From assembly GCF_013167455.1 (NCBI RefSeq), contig NZ_CP038328.1: DNA of 64,000 bases. The stretch is one strand, 5' to 3'. Both the position numbers and the translations under genes were made by a program. The DNA is from Escherichia coli O157:H7 (lineage in GTDB: Bacteria > Pseudomonadota > Gammaproteobacteria > Enterobacterales > Enterobacteriaceae). Below are positions 35,858 to 35,960 of this stretch, piece by piece. How positions within the stretch are numbered: position 1 is the stretch's first letter; each line of letters begins with the position of its first letter. The notes beneath the pieces are model-generated. The model did not search any database, had not been told where the DNA came from, and worked only from the letters and a program-made list of their open reading frames with translations.

Positions 35858-35960
35858 TAAATTTATCTCTATGACCAGTCAAGAGATGTACCTGCCATGA
35901 GCTTAATATCATGTCAGATATATCGGTCACAAACTCCCTCAGCAGCTAAGAGGAGGACAA

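Follow-up and report, generated by a model that had tools for sequence, protein, structure and literature searches.

The region missing between xis and O in Sp8, a phage 21-like prophage of Escherichia coli O157:H7

Gene content and identity of the prophage

The 64-kb stretch of E. coli O157:H7 DNA analyzed here (the window) holds a lambdoid prophage, followed by icd, rluE, nudJ, mnmA, hflD, purB, phoPQ, and a satellite-like island. The coordinates of the features discussed below are collected in Table 1. On the minus strand, O, P, and ren are followed by emrE, a large recombinase gene, the nin genes, rusA, Q, and the lysis, cos/terminase, head, tail, and tail fiber genes, so that the lambda gene order O-P-ren-nin-Q-lysis-cos-head-tail was recovered from the ORF map, the names given by PGAP to an identical O157:H7 locus, and the synteny with phage 4A7. 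On the other side of O, the start codons of xis (35961, plus strand) and of the O-like ORF (35857, minus strand) are 103 bp apart in the ORF map, in agreement with the first-pass annotation, which had set xis directly beside O with ca. 100 bp between the two starts. A strong ribosome binding site (AAGAGGAGG) is found in the intervening spacer, just upstream of the xis ATG.

We compared the element with phage 21 (OL657228.1) and with the Bievrevirus phages 4A7 and 4C10 (NC_049946.1 and LR595861.1). The segment comprising int, xis, attP, and the icd fragment was 98 to 99% identical to that of the three phages without gaps; in the case of phage 21, the ungapped alignment extended over 1,781 nt at 98.1% identity and covered xis, int, attP, the terminator, and the icd fragment. 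A phage 21-type integrase and excisionase are therefore found beside an attP that carries a copy of the icd 3′ end. Along the rest of the prophage, 4A7 was 96% identical over O (from codon 78), P, ren, emrE, and the recombinase gene, 94% over the tail genes, and 93% over the nin region, but only 65 to 70% over the head genes, and the Q and lysis modules of the prophage are of other types. Phage 21, 4A7, and 4C10 are complete and carry an early/immunity region of 6.5 to 7.1 kb that the prophage lacks.

The element is the Sakai prophage Sp8, a lambdoid prophage of the phage 21/Bievrevirus kind inserted in icd. The references for Sakai Sp8 are Hayashi 2001 and Asadulghani et al. 2009. The integration of Sakai Sp8 at icd is published (PMC8190617), and here the prophage occupies the O157:H7 icd, next to Sp7 between phoQ and roxA. 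Its gene content also matched the published profile of Sp8 (Table 1 in PMC2669165), with int, xis, and the morphogenesis, packaging, and lysis genes present and with no repressor or antirepressor and no recombination genes. In that work, CI and Cro were absent from Sp3 and Sp8 (Asadulghani et al. 2009, PMC2669165), recombination functions were absent from Sp8, and conservation of all morphogenetic genes was seen in only three prophages, Sp8 being among them (PMC2669165). With or without mitomycin C, Sp8 showed no circularization, no replication, and no packaging (PMC2669165, Table 2). This bears out the first-pass description of a cryptic prophage unable to run its own lytic cycle, and the mitomycin C and excision circle assay suggested there as a check had already been published for Sp8 with a negative outcome. 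The lesions found in the sequence are consistent with this inability to excise, replicate, and form particles. The loss of the immunity region and the inertness of Sp8 were already described between 2001 and 2009; what is added here is the truncation of O, the apparent loss of the distal att site, and the independent deletion of the same region in the K-12 prophage DLP12.

The left arm of the prophage carries cargo (452 to 2410) consisting of two ferritin-like domain genes and a manganese catalase gene, the latter listed as Sakai ECs1652 on Sp8 (PMC2323221). The only Rfam hit in the window was IS009 (RF02111, 229.5 bits) at 2570 to 2768 on the minus strand, inside the tail fiber assembly gene (2530..3111).

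TABLE 1 Features of the Sp8 prophage and its icd attachment site in the window
Feature	Position	Strand	Remarks
Lysis, cos/terminase, head, tail, and tail fiber genes	2530..28963	-	All full-length ORFs in the window; names from PGAP
Q (late antiterminator, 229 aa)	29273..29962	-	Full length; its only known upstream promoter (pR) is lost
ren (100 aa)	34036..34338	-	Full length
P (replication, 233 aa)	34335..35036	-	Full length; 98.7% identical to 4A7 P
O-like ORF	35033..35857	-	From the ORF list
5′-truncated O	35033..35821	-	tblastn/translation: codons 78 to 339 of annotated 4A7 O plus stop, in frame with upstream spacer
Replication origin, five iterons (TTACCTGATTCGGGTAA type)	35499..35611	.	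Inside the retained O coding sequence
Deletion junction	35821..35822	.	Homology blocks end/start at 35821; base-level comparison with phage 4A7
12 fortuitous codons (MLRNAVLNLSIF)	35822..35857	-	Antisense of the xis-upstream spacer; supply the apparent ATG start
DUF4222-xis spacer, native, 139 bp	35822..35960	+	ca. 99% identical to intact phages
AT-rich inverted repeat, 16-bp stem	35829..35867	.	Native to the spacer; MFE -22.5 kcal/mol, z = -4.87
xis (excisionase, 78 aa)	35961..36197	+	Full length
int (tyrosine integrase, 380 aa)	36187..37329	+	Full length, phage 21 type
Proximal attachment site arm	37341-37377	.	Putative; position transferred from annotated phage 21 via ungapped alignment
icd terminator	37390-37420	.	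Putative; position transferred from annotated phage 21 via ungapped alignment
icd (host)	37443..38693	-	As in lysogens of phage 21, the 3′-terminal 165 nt (37443-37607) are the copy carried by the phage

The xis-O junction and the O gene

At the base level, positions 30286 and 37372 of phage 4A7 both map to position 35821 of the window, a G that is common to both parental sequences and constitutes an overlap of a single base pair. On the O side, the comparison with 4A7 reads '...CAGAAGCTGGTG' and diverges after that, while the xis side sets in with the G of TAG, the stop codon of the DUF4222 gene. The true breakpoint is thus 36 bp to the left of the interval between the two start codons that had been given in the first-pass annotation. 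Compared with phages 4A7 and 4C10, ca. 7,085 bp have been lost, a figure measured against present-day relatives and not against the exact ancestor. An IS-mediated deletion was considered and rejected, since there is no IS sequence, scar, or repeat at the junction and the overlap is of 1 bp only. Neither Rfam families nor tRNAs were found at or near it.

The same position was obtained from both sides when phage records were searched by megablast. With the O side as the query (34900 to 36400, against 50,697 phage records), matches from P through O at 97 to 99% identity were retrieved in 15 intact phages, and all 15 stop at position 35821. With the xis side (35700 to 37440, against phage records), xis/int matches of 98.5 to 99.4% were found in the 25 listed of 36 phage records, phage 21 included, and all of them begin at 35821. 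No record among the 50,697 spanned the junction by megablast.

The deleted stretch opens with the DUF4222 gene, takes in pL/pR, and ends within the 5′ part of O. In 4A7 it contains DUF4222, a DksA-like gene, several small ORFs, exo, RecT/bet, gam, kil, two further ORFs, a CI-like repressor, a cro-like repressor, and a cII-like activator; the corresponding interval of the annotated phage 21 also holds N, nutL, pL/OL, OR, nutR, tR1, and pRE. The 15 proteins encoded by 4A7 between xis and O gave zero tblastn matches in the 64-kb window (E ≤ 1e-3), in a search in which P and ren, as controls, were matched full-length at 98 to 99%. A relocation of the immunity module within the window was rejected on this basis. 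Nor does PGAP list a repressor or cro in the element in an O157:H7 genome whose junction is identical, and the nearby HTH genes belong only to the satellite or to the flank beyond ompT. The first-pass annotation had listed exo/bet/gam, N, cI, cro, and cII, with pL/pR, as lost, and had named a repressor/cro module elsewhere in the element as the finding that would overturn its reading; the list is upheld by the tblastn search and by the homology blocks abutting at 35821, and no such module turned up in the window or in the annotated remainder. Since the immunity region (repressor, cro, pL/pR, and N) is missing from between xis and O, the element is a deleted derivative and not a complete member of the phage 21 type.

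The spacer that separates the junction from xis contains an inverted repeat that is terminator-like on the minus strand and buries the chimeric ATG at 35857. This repeat is also found in the intact relative 4A7, and the spacer is 98 to 99% identical in other relatives.

To assess its distribution, a 60-bp probe across position 35821 was compared with 5,426 complete E. coli genomes. It matched 295 of them, 294 at ≥99% identity, and among the 60 matches listed every named strain was O157 or O157:H7, including EDL933, EC4115, and ATCC 43888. The undeleted DUF4222-xis arrangement was present in 1,316 genomes (e.g., UTI89), and O157:H7 genomes matched the undeleted DUF4222-xis probe from the junction onward only. 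The 60-mer around 35821 is thus a lineage-specific marker of O157:H7, fixed in the clone.

On its left side the junction cuts into O, which has lost its first 77 codons as annotated in 4A7, or ca. 47 if counted from the likely true start. The window ORF covers positions 28 to 95 of the Pfam model PF04492 (Phage_rep_O, N-terminal domain), beginning at residue 13, whereas the intact O protein covers positions 1 to 95, and PGAP annotates O in the identical O157:H7 locus as a pseudogene ('incomplete; missing N-terminus'). At the sequence level, O of Sp8 is a pseudogene without pR upstream, its inactivity being predicted from the truncation of the domain, and it is best treated as such and not as a working replication gene. 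Of the first-pass claim that the late, lysis, and replication genes look intact, the part on late and lysis genes stands, these being full-length ORFs, but the part on replication does not. Similarly, the N terminus of O had been described as shorter than and diverged from that of lambda O; the start of O is indeed gone, but what looked like divergence is the 12 codons of antisense spacer. Where the two align, the retained O and phage 4A7 O are 94% identical, and the rest of the gene differs from lambda O by the type of iteron specificity, without decay. This truncation is also the single discrepancy with the 2009 paper, in which Sp8 replication was scored "+", with O and P apparently functional (PMC2669165), versus an O that is 5′ truncated here and by PGAP.

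The five iterons occupy a position analogous to that of the annotated ori iterons of lambda and phage 21, whose O has lambda-type iterons. A crude consensus scan of the minus strand between 35500 and 36400 found no sigma-70-like promoter, and no solved structure in the PDB matched O at E ≤ 0.01. In 4A7, a strong ribosome binding site (GGGAGGAATT) precedes Met31 of the annotated O (NC_049946.1, 37141 to 37233). As annotated, this protein has 339 aa and its gene overlaps the cII-like gene; the start was probably set 30 codons upstream of the true one, Met31. The N terminus of lambda O presumably begins at the point parallel to this Met31.

Proposed loss of the lytic switch and alternative readings

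Sp8 very probably results from a single deletion of ca. 7.1 kb ancestral to O157:H7 and is silent for want of a switch, not because it is repressed. One illegitimate, microhomology-free event of ca. 7.1 kb in the ancestor of the O157:H7 clone would have fused codon 78 of O to the base that follows the DUF4222 gene upstream of xis. It would have removed pL, N, the recombination genes, kil, the CI-like repressor, and the cro-like gene, as well as pR, nutR, the cII-like gene, and the first helix region of the origin-binding domain of O. If the lambda paradigm applies, no early promoter would be left for O-P-ren-nin-Q once pR and N were gone; Q would not be made, and late transcripts would terminate. 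The loss of pL and of the cII activator would leave xis and int unexpressed, and the origin could not fire, with a truncated O unable to bind the iterons and without transcriptional activation from pR. With its switch gone, the prophage would be silent without repression and would have been passed on vertically as a fixed clonal marker. Weak internal or read-through promoters might conceivably drive P, the nin genes, or Q.

A different role has to be weighed for the genes that remain. Sp8 could be a defective but trans-activated donor of parts, in which a matching Q from a co-resident or superinfecting lambdoid phage switches on the late operon, its heads, tails, lysis proteins, or cos are put to use by other elements (the adjacent satellite among them), and selection keeps the late genes. 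We consider this unlikely. The late and lysis ORFs are indeed all full length, even though the deletion has had time to become fixed in the clone; O157 genomes contain a second locus similar to the Q-holin segment; complementation among O157 prophages is documented (PMC2669165); and the type of satellite found in the neighborhood needs phage tails only (bioRxiv 10.1101/2022.09.08.507074). However, Sp8 DNA was neither packaged nor transferred (PMC2669165), and the frameshifts in nohD, the tail fiber gene, and tfa of Sp8 in strain TR01 argue against strong purifying selection. There is only a slim chance that Sp8 acts as a Q-responsive 'parts cassette' for defective O157 prophages or for the satellite, in which case the truncated O, with its P-binding half kept, might also hinder related superinfecting phages. 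The donation of late genes by recombination is plausible.

The satellite-like island itself, of ca. 10 kb (window 46100 to 56560), extends from phoQ to an integrase gene (55308..56558). It encodes the tyrosine integrase, a small HTH regulator, Icd-like proteins, a RepA-type helicase, SSB, and PerC, together with a major capsid protein, a head decoration protein, and a small terminase. Judging by its gene content, the island fits the capsid-forming PICI EcCIEDL933/Sakai Sp7. Induction of the resident EDL933 prophages gave few transductants of EcCIEDL933, and none of these prophages was judged its helper (bioRxiv 10.1101/2022.09.08.507074). If the satellite is EcCIEDL933, this mobilization at trace level, which also counts against the donation of parts, gives no support to Sp8 as its helper, and the suggestion of the first-pass annotation that the prophage could supply the satellite found no backing.

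Alternatively, xis beside a shorter O could be a natural module boundary in a mosaic but functional phage with its control genes elsewhere, which appears very improbable. Lambdoid genomes are mosaic, the breakpoint on the xis side falls precisely where the DUF4222 stop codon ends, at a gene boundary, and the head and Q/lysis modules of Sp8 are unlike those of 4A7. On the O side, however, the break lies within the conserved Phage_rep_O domain (model position 28) and not at a module boundary. Moreover, all 15 intact phages with this type of O run past the breakpoint, as do all 25 listed xis records, and none of the 50,697 phage records spans the junction. No early gene was found in the window or in the annotated rest of the element, and Sp8 is experimentally inert (PMC2669165). 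As for a sequencing or assembly artifact, a collapse between similar prophages could be imagined in O157 genomes, which hold many near-identical lambdoid prophages and, in many strains, a second copy of the O/P segment, but its probability is negligible, since the identical 60-bp junction is unchanged in 295 independently assembled complete genomes (294 at ≥99%).

Related prophages and the distal attachment site

The K-12 prophage DLP12 is a lambdoid remnant from which the whole stretch separating the int/xis side from the replication genes is likewise gone. It has in common with Sp8 the segment from the 3′ end of P through ren and emrE to ybcK (97 to 99%), the nin region (93%), and the segment Rz-bor-ybcV-ybcW-nohD (98%). 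However, DLP12 has breakpoints of its own, with an exo fragment joined to a P fragment at the equivalent of window position 34646, i.e., an independent deletion. It also differs in its integrase and attachment site (argU), in Q, and in the holin/endolysin genes, and its morphogenesis genes are almost entirely gone. The features that define DLP12 (the argU-specific intD and the exoD-peaD junction) were not found in Sp8, which showed no similarity to the int/xis/exo segment of DLP12. Sp8, in parallel to DLP12, thus offers a clean case of a prophage grounded by the loss of its lytic switch.

The block with P, ren, emrE, and the recombinase gene (31826 to 34646) is 97 to 99% identical to K-12 DLP12. 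In TR01, the flank past the Sp8 tail fibers (a ybcY-like methyltransferase gene, a tfaX-like fragment, and ompT) is 95 to 97% identical to the right end of DLP12. These similarities suggest shared ancestry of, or exchange between, the prophages at argU and icd.

The K-12 element e14 uses the same icd attachment site as Sp8 and replaces the icd 3′ end, but it keeps a repressor (ymfK), whereas Sp8 has none. Kinship between the two was rejected, since the blastn similarity was limited to icd and ca. 54 bp downstream, and the gene content of e14 (intE, the ymfK repressor, lit, mcrA, and pin) was not found in Sp8 by blastn. The alignment with relatives that the first-pass annotation had suggested gives one clean junction against phages 4A7, 4C10, and 21, and only icd against e14.

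In phage 21-type lysogens, the original icd 3′ end of the host is found displaced at the distal end of the prophage, and in K-12 e14 the displaced fragment is kept as icdC. We looked for its counterpart in TR01, in a flank (NZ_CP033605.1, 1590000 to 1608000) that lies outside the window, although positions 1 to 2500 of the window start the same flank. The order of genes there is catalase, methyltransferase pseudogene, tfa fragment, IS66, hydrolase gene, and ompT, and, after ompT, HTH gene, IS1203, truncated autotransporter gene, and minE; the iraM-to-ycgH genes of the K-12 backbone are absent. In a base-level check of this one strain, a second icd 3′ fragment was absent between the tail fiber genes and minE. 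The icd 3′ end was single-copy in two of three sampled O157 genomes and present in two copies in the third, and there were two copies in UTI89-type lysogens and in K-12. The displaced fragment, and with it the distal att site, is therefore probably missing, which as read from these genomes would be a second lesion grounding Sp8. Such a loss would explain why no Sp8 circle forms despite intact int and xis.

The late genes of Sp8 would appear to be decaying in some O157 lineages, unless the lesions of TR01 are assembly errors. In this strain, frameshifts or an internal stop affect nohD, the recombinase gene, the tail fiber gene, and tfa, all of which are full length in the window (24913 to 25458, 31865 to 33391, and 2530 to 6032).
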